Of a stretch of 64,000 nucleotides of DNA, positions 36,961-43,702 are shown piece by piece (position 1 is the stretch's first letter; each line of letters opens with the position of its first letter). A model generated the notes under the pieces. It saw only the letters and a list, made by a program, of their open reading frames with translations. It was not told the DNA's origin and did not search any database. Location of the stretch: the NCBI GenBank assembly GCA_964554625.1, contig CAZKPL010000001.1, positions 10,876-74,875 on the forward strand. The letters are read 5' to 3'. The position numbers and the translations under genes are program-made. This stretch comes from an uncultured Nitrosomonas sp. Lineage in GTDB: Bacteria > Pseudomonadota > Gammaproteobacteria > Burkholderiales > Nitrosomonadaceae.

Positions 36961-38169
36961 ATGAATGAAAATCATGATTACATAAAAGCTGATGACAGCG
37001 AGGCTCACAGCAAGATAGAACTCATCACCGAACTGCAAGCACATCGGATAGAATTAGAAACTCAAAACCGCAAGCTTAGGGATATGCAACAGCAATTGGA
37101 AGAAATGCGCAGTCACTATGCCGATCTCTATGAGAATGCTCCCGTAGGTTATCTTACGCTGAATAAAGCCGGGAACATTCTGGCAATCAATCTGACCGGA
37201 TCTGCCCTCCTCGGCAAGAAGCGCGCCTCCATTTTGAATAAATCTTTCTTAAGCTACATTATTCACGATGACAATTACAGGTTTCTTAACCACCTGCAGC
37301 AAACCTTTAATTCCTCCCATAACATTGTCACTGAGCTAAGAATCAAAGGAACTTCCAATAAGGTAATCCACATACGCATGGAAAGTTTGGTCACGAAAGA
37401 TACCGACACTTGCCGCACAGTAATGACCAATATTACCCCTGTTAAAGAAAAGAAATACCTCGACCAAGAATTGCTGAATGGAAGCCGCCGACTGATGCAG
37501 AACCTGTTCAAAATGCAGGAAGAAGAACGGCGCTTTCTTGCGCGAGAACTGCATGATGAATTAGGCCAATGGCTTACCGCCATTCACGCAGAAACGGAAA
37601 CGATCGCTTATTTCTCCGATCAAGATTCCACCACCCACACCAGCGCTCAAGCCATTAAACGATGCGTAAAAAAAATGCACGAAGTAATGCGCGATATGCT
37701 GCGCCAATTACGTCCTACGCTATTAGACACACTCGGGCTGGAAGACGCTTTACTTGAATTAAGAGAACAGTGGATCACACACAATCCCCATATTACCCTC
37801 AAACTCAAGTTCGAAGGCTCTCTGGATAAACTCAATGAACACACCAATATCACCATATTTCGCATTATTCAGGAAGCGCTCAATAATGTCCGCAATCATG
37901 CGCAAGCCACCCGGGTTCTCATTCGTTTGAATCGTAAAACTGGCGCAACCGCCGCAGAGGATGTCTTGTCGCTCAGCGTGAGCGACAATGGCAAGGGTTA
38001 CAATACCGATCAAACACCTAAAGGGCTGGGACTGCTAGGAATACGTGAACGGGCCATCGCCTCAGGCGGCAAATTTTTTGTTCGTAGCATTCCCAATCAT
38101 GGAACACAAATTCATGTCAAATTGCCACTTGACTCCTCAAACAGAAGGAGAAAGACGGACAACCTTTAA
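36961..38169 (+). CDS. Cytoplasmic PAS sensor histidine kinase, NarX/HisKA_3 class
   Basis: 402 aa with no TM segment. N-terminal coiled coil ELQAHRIELETQNRKLRDMQQQLEE feeds a PAS box LYENAPVGYLTLNKAGNILAINLTGSALLG. HisKA_3 H-box RFLARELHDELGQ. HATPase_c N and G boxes (EALNNVRNHA, DNGKGY, GLGLLGIRER). Confidence 0.9.
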   Translation: MNENHDYIKADDSEAHSKIELITELQAHRIELETQNRKLRDMQQQLEEMRSHYADLYENAPVGYLTLNKAGNILAINLTGSALLGKKRASILNKSFLSYIIHDDNYRFLNHLQQTFNSSHNIVTELRIKGTSNKVIHIRMESLVTKDTDTCRTVMTNITPVKEKKYLDQELLNGSRRLMQNLFKMQEEERRFLARELHDELGQWLTAIHAETETIAYFSDQDSTTHTSAQAIKRCVKKMHEVMRDMLRQLRPTLLDTLGLEDALLELREQWITHNPHITLKLKFEGSLDKLNEHTNITIFRIIQEALNNVRNHAQATRVLIRLNRKTGATAAEDVLSLSVSDNGKGYNTDQTPKGLGLLGIRERAIASGGKFFVRSIPNHGTQIHVKLPLDSSNRRRKTDNL

Positions 38170-38328
38170 CAAACAAGCTAAACGAATCAATCAAAGTGAT
38201 GTCAGTGACATGATCCTCTGCGGCATGCGTTGGTTTTGCGTTCCAAGACTCTAATTTTGGTTATCCTGGGAAAGAATCATCCACCTCACAAACATATCAC
38301 TTCCCGCCACCTATTTAATGATGCAATT

Positions 38329-38341
38329 AAGGAATTTCCTT
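38329..38341. promoter_or_regulatory. Perfect 6-1-6 palindrome AAGGAA-T-TTCCTT upstream of the LuxR-type regulator gene
   Basis: Read directly. It lies 180 nt upstream of the GTG start at 38522. A near-copy, AAAGAATTTCCCT, occurs at 39315-39327. Confidence 0.25.
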
Positions 38342-38521
38342 AGATCAAAATAAGCTCTACACTTATTCTATTACTTCGCCCAATGCCTCAGAATATATTG
38401 CAATGATTCAATTAAGAGTACTCGCAATGAGAAATACAGTGGCTCCGTTTAACCAAGCTCAACAGTAATACTGTTTAAAATTCGCGTTAGTTCTCACTGA
38501 AACAGCAGGAGGGTTCGAATT

Positions 38522-39178
38522 GTGAGACAAAAGCCAGTTACGGTGCTACTCATCGATGACCATCCGGTAGTACGCAATGGGTATCGCCGTCTACTTGAAA
38601 GCACCTCGGATATTCATGTCTTAGCCGATGCTGATAATGGAGAAACCGGCTGTAGCCTTTATCAAGAATATATGCCCGATGTGACCATTATTGATCTGAA
38701 TCTGGACAAACAAGGCATTGATGGCCTGGAAACCATTCATCGCATCAAAACAAAAAATCCGGCTGCGAATATTCTGGTATTCAGCATGCACAGCAATGAA
38801 ATCATGGTCCAGCGCGCGTTAAAGATGGGCGCAACAGGGTACATCACCAAGCAAAGCAACCTCGAGCAATTGCTAAAAGCAGTCCGCCAGGTGAGCCAGG
38901 GACGCGTGTATATTGATCCGGAATTGGCTTCAAATTTACTTACCGACAAAGTGCTCGGCAAATCCTCCGGAAATCCTTTGCATGTTCTTTCCAAGCGCGA
39001 ATTTCAGCTGTTTAAATTGCTGGCGGAGGGGAATTCAGTGGCACAAATTGCGGAAATGATTTCTATCAGCCCTAAGACTGTTGGCGTCCACCAGGCAAGC
39101 ATCATGAAGAAATTAAAATTACAGAACACCTCTCAGCTTGTGCGCCTCGCCATCAATTGCAAGGTTATTCAAGCGTAG
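38522..39178 (+). CDS. NarL/FixJ (LuxR-type HTH) response regulator
   Basis: 218 aa. GTG start 9 nt after AGGAGG. VLLIDDHPVVRNGY, IIDLNL, a receiver Lys region, and C-terminal LSKREFQLFKLLAEGNSVAQIAEMISISPKTVGVHQASIMKKL. Confidence 0.9.
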   Translation: MRQKPVTVLLIDDHPVVRNGYRRLLESTSDIHVLADADNGETGCSLYQEYMPDVTIIDLNLDKQGIDGLETIHRIKTKNPAANILVFSMHSNEIMVQRALKMGATGYITKQSNLEQLLKAVRQVSQGRVYIDPELASNLLTDKVLGKSSGNPLHVLSKREFQLFKLLAEGNSVAQIAEMISISPKTVGVHQASIMKKLKLQNTSQLVRLAINCKVIQA

Positions 39179-39314
39179 CATTTATTTAATCTGCAGCATC
39201 TCACAACTTCAGGCTGCAACCAGTTTGCGCGCTTTTCATCAACTCGCTTTCTTGCCACAAATAAAAAACGACAGTTTGTCCGCAACTGAACTTGAGTGCT
39301 TTCAATTCATTTTT

Positions 39315-39327
39315 AAAGAATTTCCCT
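39315..39327. promoter_or_regulatory. GAATTTCC-core half-palindromic site upstream of the repeat-protein gene
   Basis: AAAGAATTTCCCT lies 129 nt upstream of the ATG at 39456. It shares the GAATTTCC core with 38329-38341. Confidence 0.2.
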
Positions 39328-39455
39328 ATATAAAATTAGAGCCTTTGCTTATTCCTTTATTTTAGGCGCTTCATAAAATATGAGACACCTAACTTAAACA
39401 TTCGTTTTAGTGTGGTGAAATCAGGATTAGTCAACTTTTATCAAGGAGAACTAAA

Positions 39456-40454
39456 ATGAATCAATTCAGCAAAAAAATCATCGCTGCAAGCATCGTGTTT
39501 GCTTTTGGGGTAGCAGGTAATGCTTTGGCCAATCCAAGTATCACTGAGGGAGATACCAATCCTGCCGGTAGTGCAGATAATAGCGGCTCAACGGCCATAG
39601 ATAACAATGTGAATAAAACCGCTACCGCCAATAATGGTCAAACCGGTCCGGGCACGATCGCGAATGAGTATGGAACTGCAACCGATAGCTCCAATAACTC
39701 GGATAACTCCAATCACTCTGATAACTCTAATCACTCCGATAACAGCGCTAACAATTCTGTTAACGATAGCAACAATCCCGACAGCTCTGTCAACAACAGC
39801 AACAATACCGCCGATAGCAACAATCCCAACAGCTCTACCAACGACAGCAACAACACTGCCGATAGCGGCAATGATAACAGCTCTGCAAGCGCCAGCGCAC
39901 AAGGCTCAGCAGCAGCTAACGGCGCCAGCACTGCATCGGTAGACAACAGCGATAACAGCGATAATAGCGATAACAGCGATAACAGCCTCGCAGACGCCAG
40001 CGCGCAAGGCTCAGCAGCAGCTAACAATGGCGGCACTGCCACTGCATCGACTGATAACACCAATAACAGCGATAACAGCACCACAACCGCAAATGGCACA
40101 GGATCGGCAGCTGCCAATGGTGGCACTGCAACCTCCAATTATAGCGATAGCAGCGATCACAGCTCCACGACTGCGAGTGGTGCAGGAACGGCAGCCTCCA
40201 ACCATGGCGACGCAACCGCCACCTACTCAGTCAATAATTCAACACTGGAAGGCTCGGTTACCGGTGCGGGAGTCTCCACTGCTTTGGGTGATGCAGATAA
40301 CAGCAGCGCTAATACTATCACCGCCAGCAATAGCATAGACAATGCCTTCAATGGCGCTGCAGGCATCAACCAAGCCGTTCAGAATCACGGCGCCAATGCC
40401 TTGGCGCAACAGCAAGTGTCTTTCCAAGGCAACGTGAATGTCAACCCTCAATAA
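39456..40454 (+). CDS. Secreted Asn/Ser/Asp/Ala/Thr/Gly low-complexity repeat protein (candidate fibre or major subunit)
   Basis: 332 aa. AAGGAG RBS. Signal peptide KKIIAASIVFAFGVAGNALA-NPS. DNS/NHS/NNS tracts and four G(S/T)AA(A/S)N..G.(T)A(T) modules. C-terminal IDNAFNGAAGINQAVQNHGANALAQQQVSFQGNVNV. Almost no basic or large hydrophobic residues after the signal peptide. Confidence 0.85.
   Translation: MNQFSKKIIAASIVFAFGVAGNALANPSITEGDTNPAGSADNSGSTAIDNNVNKTATANNGQTGPGTIANEYGTATDSSNNSDNSNHSDNSNHSDNSANNSVNDSNNPDSSVNNSNNTADSNNPNSSTNDSNNTADSGNDNSSASASAQGSAAANGASTASVDNSDNSDNSDNSDNSLADASAQGSAAANNGGTATASTDNTNNSDNSTTTANGTGSAAANGGTATSNYSDSSDHSSTTASGAGTAASNHGDATATYSVNNSTLEGSVTGAGVSTALGDADNSSANTITASNSIDNAFNGAAGINQAVQNHGANALAQQQVSFQGNVNVNPQ
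39702..39737 (+). repeat. 18-nt in-frame tandem repeat x2 (DNSNHS)
   Basis: gataactccaatcactct / gataactctaatcactcc, with 2 differences. Confidence 0.9.
39768..39863 (+). repeat. 48-nt in-frame tandem repeat x2 (SNNPDSSVNNSNNTAD / SNNPNSSTNDSNNTAD)
   Basis: Two adjacent 48-nt units differing at 6 positions, by my alignment. Confidence 0.9.
39891..40080 (+). repeat. Direct repeat with 105-nt period (ASAQGSAAAN...DNSDNS module)
   Basis: gccagcgcacaaggctcagcagcagctaac at 39891 recurs as gccagcgcgcaaggctcagcagcagctaac at 39996. The downstream parts have diverged. Confidence 0.8.
39942..39986 (+). repeat. 9-nt in-frame tandem repeat x5 (DNS)5
   Basis: gacaacagc gataacagc gataatagc gataacagc gataacagc. 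Confidence 0.95.
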
Positions 40455-40495
40455 CTAGAGTTGTAAGCAGCATTACAGTGCTTTAGTGAGAGAGA

Positions 40496-40529
40496 GGATG
40501 CCGGTGAACAGCAACCGTCGCCGGCATCC
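40496..40529 (+). promoter_or_regulatory. Intercistronic stem-loop after the repeat-protein gene (candidate attenuator or mRNA-stabilising hairpin)
   Basis: GGATGCCGG(TG)-loop-(CG)CCGGCATCC. 9 perfect bp, extendable to 11 with one G-U. No T-tract follows. It lies 42 nt after the stop and 31 nt before the next start. Confidence 0.45.
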
Positions 40530-40559
40530 TGAAAGAAATGAACGAAGGGGGTTATTAAG

Positions 40560-40922
40560 ATGGTTTCATTTATAAAAAGCAGCCTGCTTCTTCTGTTTGT
40601 TTTGACATTGCCTATTCATGCAGCCAAGGCATCTTCCAGCCAATCTGACGATGCATTACCTTTTTCATTGGCTGAAGCCGTGTCCGCTGATGAACTTGAA
40701 GAGGCACGAGGCCGGGAAGGCATTGATATCACCACGCTAAATAACATGAATGTGCAAGCTACCTTAACGGGCAATGTAGCAAACAACAGCCTTACTGGAA
40801 CGAACATTATCGATCATGGCGCATTTGCTGGCTCTGGCGGCATGTTTTCCGTGATTCAAAATAGCGGCAACAACGTGATTATTCAGGATTCCACTATCGT
40901 GAATGTAACCATAGTCCCCTAA
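40560..40922 (+). CDS. Small secreted protein with a C-terminal VIQNSGNNVIIQ module (candidate minor subunit or nucleator)
   Basis: 120 aa. Signal peptide LLLLFVLTLPIHAAKA, then SADELEEARGREG, then NIIDHGAFAGSGGMFSVIQNSGNNVIIQDSTIVNVTIVP. Confidence 0.75.
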   Translation: MVSFIKSSLLLLFVLTLPIHAAKASSSQSDDALPFSLAEAVSADELEEARGREGIDITTLNNMNVQATLTGNVANNSLTGTNIIDHGAFAGSGGMFSVIQNSGNNVIIQDSTIVNVTIVP

Positions 40923-40936
40923 TACCGATATTTTAA

Positions 40937-41671
40937 ATGCTCATTCAAATATTCAATCCCGATATGAAACCTCTCTTCGCCCGCTGCGTTGCACTTATTC
41001 TATCCGCATTTTGCAGCGCCGCTGGCGCTGGTTCACTTGACCTGAATGGCATCGCAGGCGGAGGAAACTACAATGTCTCAGTAAAGAGTTTCGCGGAAAT
41101 GAAGTTCAGTACTGTTTATAAACAACAGTATGATTTCAGCTGTGGTTCGGCAGCATTAGCGAGTCTGCTTACTTTTCATTATGGCGACGGCGTGAATGAG
41201 CAAAGTGTATTCATGGAGATGTTTCAACATGGCGAGCAGGAGAAGATCAAGAAGCTGGGCTTCTCCTTACTGGATATGAAAAAGTATCTGGAAAGGCGAG
41301 GCTACCGGTCCGATGGGTTCAAGATCAGTTTAGATCAGCTCGTGGCCGCTAACAGTCCTGCCATTACCATTATCAACGCAAATGGCTATTTACATTTCGT
41401 GATTATCAAAGGCATTACTGCGCAGCGTGTTTTGGTGGGTGATCCAGCTAAAGGTGTCCATATTGTCCCGCGCGACGAATTTGAAGCAATGTGGGAAAAG
41501 CGCATCCTGTTTTTAATCCATGCGGATCAAGGCATCGGCACGGGAAATTTTCAGGATCAGAAGGAGTGGTCCGCCCGCCTGGCGCCGCTGGGGGATGCCA
41601 TTGATCGAAGCAGTCTGGCTGAATACCATGTTTTGATACGCGGGCAGGTGCCGGGTCCTTTTGATTTCTAA
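40937..41671 (+). CDS. Periplasmic C39-family cysteine peptidase (FapD-like)
   Basis: 244 aa. Signal peptide KPLFARCVALILSAFCSAAGA. Oxyanion Gln and nucleophile Cys in YKQQYDFSCGSAALASLL. GFSLLDMKKYL. His in NGYLHFVIIKG. Asp in VLVGDPAKG. No ABC transporter domain is attached. Confidence 0.85.
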   Translation: MLIQIFNPDMKPLFARCVALILSAFCSAAGAGSLDLNGIAGGGNYNVSVKSFAEMKFSTVYKQQYDFSCGSAALASLLTFHYGDGVNEQSVFMEMFQHGEQEKIKKLGFSLLDMKKYLERRGYRSDGFKISLDQLVAANSPAITIINANGYLHFVIIKGITAQRVLVGDPAKGVHIVPRDEFEAMWEKRILFLIHADQGIGTGNFQDQKEWSARLAPLGDAIDRSSLAEYHVLIRGQVPGPFDF

Positions 41672-41691
41672 TTTATTGCTGGATATTAAAC

Positions 41692-42195
41692 ATGAACACT
41701 TATAAATTAGACTTTCCCCAGAAAAACTCCAAGCGCTTATCTCTATTCATCGCTCTCGTATGCCTGATCATTGCCTGTCACGCATCTGCAGACGAATCAC
41801 CCACCAGATCTGAATCTGACTCTATTGATGTCTATGACAACTGGCCCCGGGCGACTGATGGTGAACTAGCGCAACAAAGAGGCGGGTTTATGCTCCCCAA
41901 TGGAGTAACGATAGATTTCAGCTTTGAAAGAATTATTTCATTGAATGGCGTGGAAACCTTTTCTTCCCTCTTGCAATTCCCCGAAAATGGCTTGGTATTG
42001 CAAAATGGCAGCCACAATCTGGCATCAGATTTAGCCGTCTCAGGTTTAGGTCATGTCATTCAAAATAATTTAGATAATCAAGTAATCAAGACTATCAATG
42101 AAATTAACATTGAGATCGGTAACCTGCAGAATATTGGGTTACATAATAGCCATGGTCATGGCAGCATGAATATGATCTTACCCGTTCTACACTAA
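41692..42195 (+). CDS. Small secreted protein with a double-glycine-like motif and VIQNNLDNQVIK module (FapE-position protein)
   Basis: 167 aa. Signal peptide LSLFIALVCLIIACHASA, TDGELAQQRGG-F, then SDLAVSGLGHVIQNNLDNQVIKTINEINIEI. Confidence 0.75.
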   Translation: MNTYKLDFPQKNSKRLSLFIALVCLIIACHASADESPTRSESDSIDVYDNWPRATDGELAQQRGGFMLPNGVTIDFSFERIISLNGVETFSSLLQFPENGLVLQNGSHNLASDLAVSGLGHVIQNNLDNQVIKTINEINIEIGNLQNIGLHNSHGHGSMNMILPVLH

Positions 42196-42397
42196 TCATC
42201 TTTAAGTTGTTAGATACCCTCAAGCGGATATAAAATCTTTCCGGCAAGGCTGCATGCATAGCAAAAAATTTTCGTTATAAGCATGCTCTCCTCAAAATAC
42301 AGAGCAGAACTTGCTCTAATCTTCTGGTTGCAGCATTCTCATCGGGTTTTATAATGACTTCCCTCATAGGCAAGAAGCACTGTCAACTTAATCAAAA

Positions 42398-43702
42398 ATG
42401 AATAAAAAATATTGTCACACGCTTTGTTTTTGGAATGGAATAACCCGATGCTTTGTTTTTATCGCATGTCTTTTTTTCATAAATGGAAGCTATGCTGAAA
42501 CAAGCAAACCTGCAGATTCATTAGAGCACTACCGGCAGCTTCTTGTTGAGCAGGAGAAAAAATTTGAAAGACAGCGCCAATTACTTGAAGAACAAGGCAA
42601 GGAACTGGAACGCTTAAGAAAACACCTTGATGCACTATCCAAACAATCTCCTGCTCCATCAAATCAGCCAAAGCCATCAGCACCAACCAATACCGCAGCC
42701 AAGCAAAAAGAAGACACACCAAGAGCGTCGCCGAATCAGATACCGTCGGGACCAGTCGGCCAGGCTCCTCCTGAGTCAAAAGAACCAGCGAGACCTCCAG
42801 AAATGCCCAGGCTAAGTGAAACGGTAGGGGGTGTTTTAACCAAAAAAGGCAACATTATTGTTGAACCGGCCATGGCATATTCTTATTCTGACAACAACCG
42901 CGTATTTCTGGATGCTTTTACTTTTATACCGGCAATTGCGGTCGGTCTCATCGATATCCGTGATATTACCCGGCACAGTCTTTTTGCCAGCCTTGGGTTA
43001 CGCTATGGCGCAACTAATCGTCTGGAATTGGAAGCCAGGGTTCCTTATGTATACCGTGCCGATATCCAGCGTTCCCGTCCTGTTAGCATCGGCTCCAGCA
43101 TTAATGAAACATTCGACGCAAGCGGAAATAATATCGGTGATGTCGAGCTGACAGCCCGTTATCAGCTCACCGATGGTTCGGGCGGCTGGCCTATTTTGGT
43201 GGGTAATATGGTCACAACGATACCCACAGGAACCAGTCCCTTTGATATCAAATTTGTTGAATCACAAGAAGTACCCGGCGCCATGTTCCCAACAGAAGCT
43301 CCGACAGGATCAGGTTTTTTCAGTTTCCAGCCAAGTGTTACCGCACTTTATCCAACCGATCCAGCCGTATTCTTCAGCAACATCCAATACACCTATACCA
43401 TGGAAACTGATGGGAATGCAGGCAAGATCGACCCGGGCGACGCAGTAGGCATGACTTTTGGTATGGGATTTAACATTAATGAACGATCCTCCTTTAACCT
43501 GGGATACTCTCATAGACATTTTTTTAATACACGGGTAAATGGCGATAAAATCGGCGGTTCTGCACTGGATATTGGACAAGTGTTATTGGGTTACGCATTC
43601 AGATATTCCCAACGAGTCAATTTTAATTTATCCATCGGAATCGGCGCGACCGACAATGCACAAGATGCAACCATTACCTTCAGGGCACCGATAACCTTTT
43701 AA
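42398..43702 (+). CDS. Outer-membrane beta-barrel protein with N-terminal coiled coil and Pro-rich linker (FapF-like architecture)
   Basis: 434 aa. Signal peptide to SYA-ETS. Heptad-rich LEHYRQLLVEQEKKFERQRQLLEEQGKELERLRKHLDAL. Linker of about 55 aa rich in P/S/A/Q. Then alternating-polarity strands ending ITFRAPITF, with a terminal aromatic residue. Confidence 0.85.
   Translation: MNKKYCHTLCFWNGITRCFVFIACLFFINGSYAETSKPADSLEHYRQLLVEQEKKFERQRQLLEEQGKELERLRKHLDALSKQSPAPSNQPKPSAPTNTAAKQKEDTPRASPNQIPSGPVGQAPPESKEPARPPEMPRLSETVGGVLTKKGNIIVEPAMAYSYSDNNRVFLDAFTFIPAIAVGLIDIRDITRHSLFASLGLRYGATNRLELEARVPYVYRADIQRSRPVSIGSSINETFDASGNNIGDVELTARYQLTDGSGGWPILVGNMVTTIPTGTSPFDIKFVESQEVPGAMFPTEAPTGSGFFSFQPSVTALYPTDPAVFFSNIQYTYTMETDGNAGKIDPGDAVGMTFGMGFNINERSSFNLGYSHRHFFNTRVNGDKIGGSALDIGQVLLGYAFRYSQRVNFNLSIGIGATDNAQDATITFRAPITF

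Follow-up and report, generated by a model that had tools for sequence, protein, structure and literature searches.

The locus examined here raises the question of whether two small secreted proteins, encoded on either side of a C39 cysteine peptidase gene, are substrates of that enzyme, so that each would be matured twice, by the Sec signal peptidase and then by the periplasmic peptidase encoded between them. The window (the whole stretch of DNA that was analysed, 64,000 nucleotides) had been described in an earlier note as encoding an ELxxxRG(G) motif, resembling a double-glycine leader, behind the Sec signal peptides of both flanking proteins. This description held in both parts: the two motifs lie where they had been placed, with the range 40683-41886 running from the start of the first to the end of the second, and each follows a Sec signal peptide in a protein that flanks the peptidase.

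Five genes at 39456-43702 likely constitute a divergent outer-membrane secretion system of the Fap/Fil type, an assignment inferred from homology to FapD, FapE and FapF (Table 1). The first product is presumed, from sequence alone, to be the major fibre subunit; it matches nothing in Pfam or NCBIfam, its ORF contains tandem DNA repeats, and over its C-terminal ~65 aa it shows homology to the domain that forms the mature part of the 120 aa family (hhalign probability 77%, E 2e-5; BLASTP E 2e-4). A protein of this type occupies the equivalent position in N. europaea, Methylobacter and most related loci. The last product, the 434 aa channel, matches the FapF structures PDB 5O65 and 5O67 (E 3-5e-25 over residues 144-433) and scores below the cut-offs of the NCBIfam models FapF (2e-40, 139 bits, cut-off 700) and FilC (9e-11, 42 bits, cut-off 630); its coiled-coil-like, Pro-rich N-terminal part was read from the sequence, and related loci keep a FapF-like channel at the equivalent position. 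An ABC transporter is absent from the five-gene cassette, both in the window locus and in its relatives, and no FapA-like gene was found among the ORFs of the locus.

Table 1. Coordinates of the genes, motifs and residues discussed (positions in the window).
Feature	Position	Strand	Details
332 aa secreted Asn/Ser/Asp/Thr-rich repeat protein	39456..40454	+	signal peptide; without leader motif
Tandem DNA repeats in the 332 aa ORF	39682-40221		
120 aa small subunit precursor	40560..40922	+	signal peptide 1-24; putative leader 25-52 or 25-54
Leader-like motif of the 120 aa protein	40683..40721	+	S42-ADELEEARGREG-G54
Mature domain of the 120 aa protein			~66 aa; ends in VIQNSGNNVIIQDSTIVNVTIVP
Periplasmic stand-alone C39 cysteine peptidase, 244 aa	40937..41671	+	probable start M10; Pfam PF03412, E 3e-19
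Catalytic Q63	41123-41125	+	
Catalytic C69	41141-41143	+	
Catalytic H153	41393-41395	+	
Catalytic D169	41441-41443	+	
167 aa FapE-like precursor	41692..42195	+	signal peptide 1-33; putative leader 34-65; mature part from F66
Leader-like motif of the 167 aa protein	41854..41886	+	T55-G65, TDGELAQQRGG
Segments spanning the leader motif			DNWPRATDGELAQQRGGFMLPNG and AEAVSADELEEARGREGIDITT
FapF-like outer-membrane channel, 434 aa	42398..43702	+	signal peptide, coiled-coil segment, Pro-rich linker, beta-barrel

The C39 peptidase, encoded between the 120 aa and 167 aa ORFs and equipped with its own signal peptide, aligns to the C39 domains of PCAT1 and LahT, and its catalytic residues match those of PCAT1. 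All four (Q63, C69, H153 and D169) are invariant across 40 diverse relatives; from these residues and the signal peptide we infer that the enzyme is likely to be both active and periplasmic. Against NCBIfam, sub-threshold matches were obtained to FilB (1e-36, 127 bits, cut-off 475) and FapD (1e-36, 126 bits, cut-off 330). Its relatives comprise 2264 representatives, >1000 of them at E<=1e-10. Naturally Cys-less peptidases were sought as a test of motif decay and none was found, every full-length representative retaining the Cys.

Both flanking proteins carry AxA signal-peptidase sites, judged by eye as A22-K-A24 before S25 (120 aa) and A31-S-A33 before D34 (167 aa), and the Gly pair follows these sites at a distance of ~27 and ~31 residues, respectively. 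The 167 aa ORF reads NW51-P-R-A-T55-D-G-E58-L59-A-Q-Q-R63-G64-G65-F66-MLPNG through this region; the scissile bond is predicted, with no cleavage data, between G65 and F66 (nt 41886 and 41887), and W51, A54, D56, E58, L59, G64, G65 and F66 are all invariant in 19 close homologues. The 120 aa ORF reads AEAV-S42-A-D-E45-L46-E-E-A-R50-G51-R52-E53-G54-IDIT, for which a cut after R52 (the canonical register) or after G54 is possible; cleavage data are likewise lacking, and the exact site remains uncertain. This family has 138 homologues, in Nitrosomonas and Methylobacter, and column counts over 121 of its sequences are 113 for E45, 121 for L46, 103 for R50, 120 for G51, 109 for R52, 103 for E53 (G in 15) and 121 for G54. 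The C-terminal modules of the two families are homologous to each other (hhalign probability 98%, E 1.7e-13). Neither Pfam nor NCBIfam yielded a family for the two proteins or for 56 and 57 relatives, and the profile of the 120 aa family matched nothing in the PDB. AF2 monomer models were of low confidence (pLDDT 49 for the 120 aa and 43 for the 167 aa protein) and too poor for fold searches; they place a short helix before the Gly residues (residues 43-49 and 56-61, respectively), which gives a leader helix weak support only. A lipoprotein reading of the 167 aa protein was rejected, the lipobox-like I-I-A-C29 within its signal peptide not being kept in homologues.

To what extent this motif is a property of the gene arrangement was assessed over 82 related loci, in which many proteobacteria are represented, as are Nitrospira and others. 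The gene directly downstream of the C39 peptidase encodes L-x3-R-G-G in 70-74 of the 82 loci (85-90%), compared to a background of 34 among 1972 (1.7%) other six-frame ORFs of >=100 aa from the same loci; for the upstream small gene, 31-33 loci show the strict form and ~30 more a close variant of it. Within the window, the relaxed pattern [LM]-x3-R-G-[GRAS] occurs in a sensible context only in the 120 aa and 167 aa ORFs. In the downstream family (n=76), position -12 is V, A or L in 72 sequences, -7 is L in 71, -4 is M, L or A in 59, -1 is G in 73 and A in 3, +1 is F or Y in 69, and -15 is W in 37; Arg -3 and Gly -2 were fixed by the search pattern in this set. Gly -2 (G64 of the 167 aa protein) is invariant in the 19 close and in 56 distant homologues. 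Conservation downstream of the Gly pair continues from +1 to +10 (F-x-L-P-N-G-V-x-I-D, with G at +6 in 53/76), and the upstream and downstream families, whose N-terminal regions are otherwise unrelated, have in common only the pattern from -12 to -1. In distant clades sampled separately, L(-7), a hydrophobic -4 and G(-2) are kept, and -1 is G, R, K, M or F.

These data bear on three points of the earlier note. It had held that a motif not conserved in orthologous clusters would refute the maturation idea; the motif is conserved, its spacing free of indels over ~80 loci from distant taxa, and the idea is not refuted on that ground. Its emphasis on Glu at -8 failed as a family feature, since this residue, although present in both window proteins, occurs in only 29/76 downstream and 16/68 upstream relatives; Arg(-3), Gly(-2) and Phe or Tyr at +1 are conserved instead. 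The Arg that it had reported at -1 of the 120 aa protein held as an observation and is a lineage variant: a true G-G is found in 40/68 upstream relatives, and ~10/68 have Ala at -2.

Canonical double-glycine leaders place positions -12, -7, -4 and -2/-1 in the binding groove of the C39 domain. The putative leaders described here resemble those of PCAT/AMS systems (ComA/ComC, LahT, PCAT1) in carrying a hydrophobic residue at both -12 and -4, Leu at -7, Gly at -2 and a small residue at -1, in a length of ~20-30 residues, and in the pairing with an enzyme that has the same catalytic Gln/Cys/His/Asp. In the window proteins the -12/-7/-4 residues are V41, L46 and A49 (120 aa) and A54, L59 and Q62 (167 aa), of which the Ala at -12 and Gln at -4 of the latter would make weak hydrophobic contacts. 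Known C39 enzymes require Gly, Ala or Ser at -1; the 167 aa protein offers G65 there, and the 120 aa protein has R52. The arrangement differs in its topology. Classical leaders form the extreme N-terminus of cytoplasmic precursors, and their removal takes place on the inner side of an ABC transporter as the precursor is exported, whereas in the Nitrosomonas locus the leader lies behind a Sec signal peptide, the enzyme is free in the periplasm, and the export partner is an outer-membrane barrel with no ABC transporter. Furthermore, Arg -3 and Phe or Tyr +1 are family-specific and have no counterpart in classical leaders.

A link to experimental work is provided by the Fap system of Pseudomonas. 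The 167 aa family profile matches Pseudomonas FapE (hhalign probability 87%, E 4e-6) over the leader and first mature residues only; the rest of the 167 aa protein is much shorter than FapE and shows no detectable alignment to it. FapE bears L-x3-E-M-x2-L-R-G-R before Y, in the homologous segment SSGFKPIELKDSEMAELRGR followed by YVMPG, and in the canonical fap operon FapE alone among the Fap proteins has the motif. Pseudomonas-type FapE sequences have G-R or G-K at the Gly pair, with Gly -2 retained; the motif was missed in Pseudomonas because the second Gly is Arg there. FapE is also the only Fap protein reported to lose its N-terminus: its first peptide in mass spectrometry is at residue 72, whereas FapA-D were covered throughout, and the FapD Cys38Ala mutation abolished secretion (PMC5557850). 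Rouse et al. 2017 proposed FapE as the likely FapD substrate, while stating that Fap proteins lack canonical C39 sequences (PMC5557850), and both the substrate and the recognition sequence of FapD-type enzymes have been described as undetermined (PMC5557850, PMC6173800). The statement in the earlier note that the substrate of this protease class has remained unclear thus held only in part. In the literature searched, nothing beyond these 2017-2018 statements resolved the FapD substrate or treated the Fil system, and no earlier description of the leader motif itself was found, FapE having already been a suspected substrate.

The Nitrosomonas locus is like Fap in that a signal-peptide-bearing C39 peptidase adjoins a barrel of the FapF type that carries a coiled coil at its N-terminus (PDB 5O65, E 5e-25), a FapE-like gene directly follows the peptidase, and all products are Sec-exported. 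FapF itself is a trimeric 12-strand barrel. The Nitrosomonas locus is unlike Fap in encoding, upstream of the peptidase, a further leader-bearing subunit of ~120 aa, in having no FapA, and in having R-G-G before F where FapE has R-G-R before Y. Pfam FapBC (PF27129) did not match the 332 aa and 120 aa proteins or 57 relatives. A homology of the 120 aa family to FapB, suggestive by eye in an alignment, was rejected (hhalign probability 1%), and we claim no FapB/C homology.

On balance, and by a modest margin, we favour the reading that the 120 aa and 167 aa proteins are pro-proteins cut by the adjacent C39 peptidase after Sec export. The data show that the motif is present, that it and its gene linkage are conserved, that the catalytic residues are intact, and that there is homology to FapD, to FapE and to FapF. 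The identity of the cutting enzyme, the exact bond and any coupling to secretion are inferred, and cleavage has not been shown. In this view, the two small accessory subunits would be made as pre-pro-proteins, from which Sec and signal peptidase I would take off residues 1-24 (120 aa) and 1-33 (167 aa). An N-terminal propeptide of ~30 residues, built like a double-glycine leader, would then be exposed, in which a short helix with hydrophobic side chains at -12, -7 and -4 is followed by Arg-Gly-Gly (or Gly-Arg). The peptidase groove would bind this helix and cut after the Gly pair, giving predicted new N-termini at F66 (167 aa) and at E53 or I55 (120 aa). The cut would probably fall at or near the channel, so that processing might be coupled to export or to the release of assembly competence. 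The small subunits are the consistent substrate candidates because the large subunit lacks the motif in the window and the GG of the channel is not conserved elsewhere. The channel as substrate, an idea of Rouse et al., was rejected on this basis: the window sequence L-S-E-T-V-G-G before VLT is replaced in relatives by PGVLT, RGVLT or QGILT. The two-step maturation put forward in the earlier note (Sec, then C39) is thus supported by conservation, by the C39-leader register and by the FapE homology, with cleavage unproven.

Several observations weigh against maturation. Cleavage has not been seen in a single member of this clade, and the FapE evidence consists of absent peptides, naming neither protease nor bond. 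A single enzyme would have to accept RGG before F as well as RGR before E, a demand that falls away if G54 is the cut site in the 120 aa protein; Arg stands at -1 in that protein, and Arg or Lys in Pseudomonas-type FapE. The invariant Arg -3 and Phe or Tyr +1 have no classical counterpart, and the motif could therefore serve another partner.

The strongest rival takes up this last point and gives the conserved segment a role in targeting or docking, without cleavage by the C39 enzyme at the Gly pair; either the periplasmic coiled coil of the FapF-like channel would recognise it, or the peptidase would hold it as a chaperone, with N-terminal loss arising from another protease or from non-specific trimming. 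This is consistent with features that are unusual for C39 substrates: Arg(-3) and Phe or Tyr(+1) are invariant, and position -1 accepts R, K, M, E or F. Rouse et al. themselves raised the possibility that the N-terminus lost from FapE acts as a FapF targeting sequence, and type I secretion is known to include C39-like domains with binding but no cutting activity (PMC5557850). We nevertheless regard docking alone as unlikely: the catalytic residues are invariant in every full-length relative, the loss of secretion in FapD Cys38Ala argues that proteolysis is needed, other operon products offer no conserved candidate site, and targeting and cleavage can coexist.

A second possibility, that the motif belongs to the structure of the mature proteins and is unrelated to the peptidase (e.g., as a turn ahead of the first beta-strand that is kept because folding or fibre assembly needs it), draws on the conserved mature segment from +1 to +10, which directly abuts the motif, and on the occurrence of FapE in fibres (PMC3684753). 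It appears very improbable, given that the upstream and downstream families have the -12 to -1 pattern in common but not +1 to +10, that this pattern fits the C39 leader register, and that FapE before residue 72 went undetected in cells (PMC5557850). Chance resemblance of two short low-complexity secreted proteins to a double-glycine leader could be entertained from the window only, where the motif is short and E-L-x3-R-G fixes just four residues. It is practically ruled out, being refuted by the conservation data: 85-90% of downstream neighbours against a 1.7% background, a spacing invariant over distant taxa, and near-invariance in the 121 and 19 close homologues.

A bolder reading, which we would neither press nor dismiss, is that Fap, Fil and related outer-membrane fibre systems use a periplasmic counterpart of PCAT-type export. 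Were this true, the leader behind the Sec signal would be an address tag for the FapD-FapF pair, removed at the channel by the free C39 peptidase. The FapD recognition sequence, long sought, would be Phi at -12, L or M at -7, Phi at -4, R at -3, G at -2 and G or R at -1, with F or Y at +1 beyond the bond; Pseudomonas FapE would be cut between G39-R40 and Y41, and some lineages, including the Nitrosomonas-type locus, would own two leader-bearing substrates. FapD-type peptidases are essential to secretion of the Pseudomonas biofilm amyloid, and a conserved leader with a defined register specifies where cleavage by this biofilm-fibre protease, which has no established target, can be tested. The double-glycine leader principle, known from cytoplasmic ABC exporters, would then apply also to a periplasmic, outer-membrane pathway that depends on Sec and occurs in many proteobacteria, Nitrospira and other groups, and the leader might offer a handle to inhibit or engineer fibre secretion.

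Two further fibre systems invite comparison. With respect to the Fil pilus system of Acinetobacter, the peptidase of the locus matches the model of the C39 peptidase FilB as well as it does FapD and the channel matches FilC, with scores far below cut-offs; the Fil subunit models gave no match to the neighbouring small proteins of the locus. Curli (CsgA/CsgB, CsgG) shows no sequence relationship to the locus, is not known to involve a protease in its biogenesis, and retains the N-terminal targeting segment of CsgA, which is not removed. Like curli, the locus encodes Sec-exported, disordered, Asn/Gln-rich subunits, a major one and a small related one, and by analogy the 120 aa mature domain, in resembling the C-terminal module of the large protein, recalls what may possibly be a nucleator.

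Both small proteins flanking the C39 peptidase of the Nitrosomonas locus, 120 and 167 aa in length, carry a leader-like motif ~27–31 residues after an AxA signal-peptidase site (sites read by eye), at exactly the positions where the earlier note had placed ELxxxRG(G) motifs behind Sec signal peptides. A scan of the entire window found no further ORF with the motif in a plausible context. AF2 models of the two proteins were poor (pLDDT 49 and 43) and place short helices directly ahead of R-G, at residues 43–49 of the 120 aa protein and 56–61 of the 167 aa protein. The signal peptide of the 167 aa protein also contains a lipobox-like I-I-A-C (I26-I27-A28-C29); Cys29 varies among homologues, and a lipoprotein signal is therefore improbable.

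Features of the locus (window coordinates)
Feature	Position	Strand
PAS/HisKA_3 histidine kinase	36961-38169	+
NarL/LuxR-type response regulator	38522-39178	+
Secreted Asn/Ser/Asp-rich repeat protein, 332 aa	39456-40454	+
DNA repeats, periods 9, 18, 48, 84	39682-40221	
120 aa protein	40560-40922	+
Motif S42-ADELEEARGREG-G54	40683-40721	
C-terminal module, 120 aa protein	40815-40919	
C39 peptidase, 244 aa	40937-41671	+
167 aa protein	41692-42195	+
Signal peptide, 167 aa protein	41692-41790	
Motif T55-DGELAQQRGG-G65, then F66	41854-41886	
C-terminal module, 167 aa protein	about 42040-42126	
Outer-membrane protein, 434 aa (FapF-like channel)	42398-43702	+

These genes belong to a run of seven successive plus-strand ORFs (36961–43702), and the cassette order (large repeat protein, ~120 aa protein, C39 peptidase, ~160–190 aa protein, FapF-like barrel) is identical in N. 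europaea and Methylobacter. The kinase and regulator genes (36961–39178) immediately precede the cassette and share its strand. Neither gene occupies the matching place in N. europaea or Methylobacter; control of the cassette by this pair is thus conceivable in the window and is not a family trait. By best hits, the window falls within Nitrosomonas or close to it. No Rfam family reached gathering score anywhere in the window (1–64000).

The 244 aa peptidase bears an N-terminal signal peptide, matches Pfam Peptidase_C39 (E 3e-19) and aligns with PCAT1, LahT and ComA over their C39 domains. Among NCBIfam models, FilB and FapD tie (both 1e-36, both far under their curated cut-offs). When 40 diverse relatives were aligned, residues Q63, C69, H153 and D169 showed no variation; these relatives come from a family for which an exhaustive profile-free search returned 2264 representatives (1038 at E<=1e-10, 138 at E<=1e-30).

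Across 19 homologues of the 167 aa protein, W51, A54, D56, E58, L59, G64, G65, F66 and L68-P-N-G71 are all invariant, with free variation in the signal peptide and the stretch that follows it. Searches with the 120 aa protein gave 138 homologues, from Nitrosomonas and Methylobacter, and 121 aligned sequences retain E45 (113), L46 (121), R50 (103), G51 (120), R52 (109), E53 (103, Gly in 15) and G54 (121). A genome scan using the alignment of 40 peptidase relatives as query returned 80 loci spanning Burkholderiales (Ralstonia, Massilia, Duganella, Variovorax), Gamma-, Alpha- and Deltaproteobacteria, Nitrospira and others. Strict L-x3-R-G-G was present in the ORF directly 3′ of the peptidase in 70–74 of 82 non-redundant loci and in the small upstream ORF in 31–33 of 82; variants such as RGR-EG, RGE-G, RGM-GG, RAQ-G and SGG occur in the small upstream ORF of ~30 further loci. 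As background, the motif was found in 34 of 1972 other six-frame ORFs >=100 aa (1.7%), a density of 0.074 motifs per 1000 residues, for a chance expectation of 0.012 in a 170 aa protein.

Counting back from the predicted cut after the Gly pair, the downstream family (relatives of the 167 aa protein, n=76) shows W at −15 (37), V/A/L at −12 (72), D/E at −10 (50), E at −8 (29), L at −7 (71), D/E at −6 (51), M/L/A at −4 (59), G (73) or A (3) at −1, F (64) or Y (5) at +1 and G at +6 (53). R at −3 and G at −2 were set by the search pattern; for these two the strict locus counts given above apply. The upstream family shares the hydrophobic −12, L −7, R −3, G −2 and G −1 (40/68); its +1 to +10 sequence is unlike that of the downstream family. 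Where peptidases are only 34–37% identical, their neighbors keep the same logic with looser −1 and −3. Among the examples from such distant clades are ELQEARGG/E (L087), ELDRSVGR/LLLPDG and DLDRVTGF-GVD (L089), TLAGLTGK/YMG (L090) and ELSGIAGMG in a 116 aa downstream protein (L086), with Leu −7 and Gly −2 as constants. In L086:3476-6236 (GCA_013178415.1), the gene 5′ of the peptidase encodes a Pfam FapBC (PF27129) protein of 147 aa that has no leader motif, and the barrel, only 312 aa long, has no coiled-coil N-terminus.

The positions conserved in these families are the recognition positions of canonical C39 leaders. ComA recognizes Leu(−12)-x3-Glu(−8)-Leu(−7) ahead of the Gly pair. Bound to LahT150, the leader is extended over residues −1 to −3, and the pocket narrows at the Gly pair (PMC6363468). 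Glu −8, to which the earlier note gave weight, belongs to the ComA consensus and is not kept in the Fap-like families; Arg −3 and Phe/Tyr +1 are extras peculiar to the Fap-like families.

The motif extends to Pseudomonas FapE. Full FapE sequences were recovered with a query rebuilt from the FapE peptides that Rouse et al. 2017 give as supplementary dataset 6, and FapE reads MNTSRWLTVLCLAASMPAYA/SSGFKPIELKDSEMAELRGR/YVMPGRIISFGIVM..., with L −12, E −8, M −7, L −4, R −3, G −2, R −1 and Y +1. A profile of 56 downstream proteins matched the FapE profile in hhalign (probability 87%, E 4e-6), a match confined to the leader-motif region. Within the canonical fapABCDEF locus only FapE has the motif; it was looked for in FapA, FapB, FapC and FapF and was absent. 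The peptides of Rouse et al. (PMC5557850) are spread over FapA–D and include none from the first ~70 residues of FapE, and FapD C38A abolished secretion. Absence of the predicted tryptic leader peptides SSGFKPIELK and DSEMAELR may reflect leader removal, leaving the bond undetermined. A 2018 review still gave the FapD substrate as undetermined (PMC6173800), and we found no later resolution in the literature searched.

Two-step maturation, as the earlier note proposed, remains the best-supported reading and one we modestly favor, with cleavage inferred rather than shown: Sec and signal peptidase would act on both small proteins, after which the adjacent periplasmic C39 enzyme would remove a double-glycine-type propeptide. 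The predicted bond in the 167 aa protein is G65–F66. The cut in the 120 aa protein is harder to place; canonical register would give R52–E53, with Arg at P1, and invariant G54, two residues on (E/G-G, then I/V-D), is a possible alternative. Pseudomonas-type FapE likewise has Arg/Lys at −1, so that a basic P1 may be acceptable to these enzymes, or else the real bond lies one or two residues off. By analogy with PCAT exporter logic, and given the conserved peptidase–channel pairing (PMC6173800), cleavage by the C39 enzyme may be coupled to export via the FapF-like channel. FapE processing by FapD has already been published as a hypothesis; apparently undescribed are the conserved, register-matched leader motif, its spread over about 80 loci and FapE, and a second leader-bearing small subunit in the Nitrosomonas-type lineage. 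The locus is best read, on inferred cleavage, as a divergent Fap/Fil-like system in which double-glycine leader processing takes a Sec-dependent, periplasmic form.

The 434 aa protein matched FapF crystal structures 5O65/5O67 (E 3-5e-25) and, under cut-off, the NCBIfam FapF model. Just ahead of its barrel (residues ~137–147, PRLSETVGGVLTKKG) lies L-S-E-T-V-G-G with Leu at −7, which recalls a published proposal that FapD might cut FapF. A Gly-Gly cut at the FapF junction is unsupported as a family-wide feature: V-G-G/VLT of the window is PGVLT, RGVLT or QGILT elsewhere, and with P-G, R-G or Q-G in other clades there is therefore no conserved Gly-Gly.

Neither small protein belongs to a Pfam or NCBIfam family. 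A strongly conserved C-terminal module of ~36 residues is common to both families (tvIQNSgnNvlIQnaTiVNV; hhalign probability 98%, E 1.7e-13), with the pattern IQN-x3-N/Q-x-I-x4-T-I-x-N-V in alignments A2 and A3 of the two families. By eye the module is like the FapB repeat GMLGINQTAGANNQSINAVRISI; comparing the profile with one FapB sequence gave no significant match. The C-terminus of the 332 aa protein (~65 residues) is similar to the mature domain of the 120 aa protein (probability 77%, E 2e-5), so that the small subunit might, by inference only, template or cap the large one. The 332 aa protein consists of tandem DNS/NNS-type repeats, with conservation limited to the signal peptide and C-terminal ~65 aa, and its counterparts elsewhere vary in length between about 300 and 700 aa and have repeats rich in T/K or D/N.
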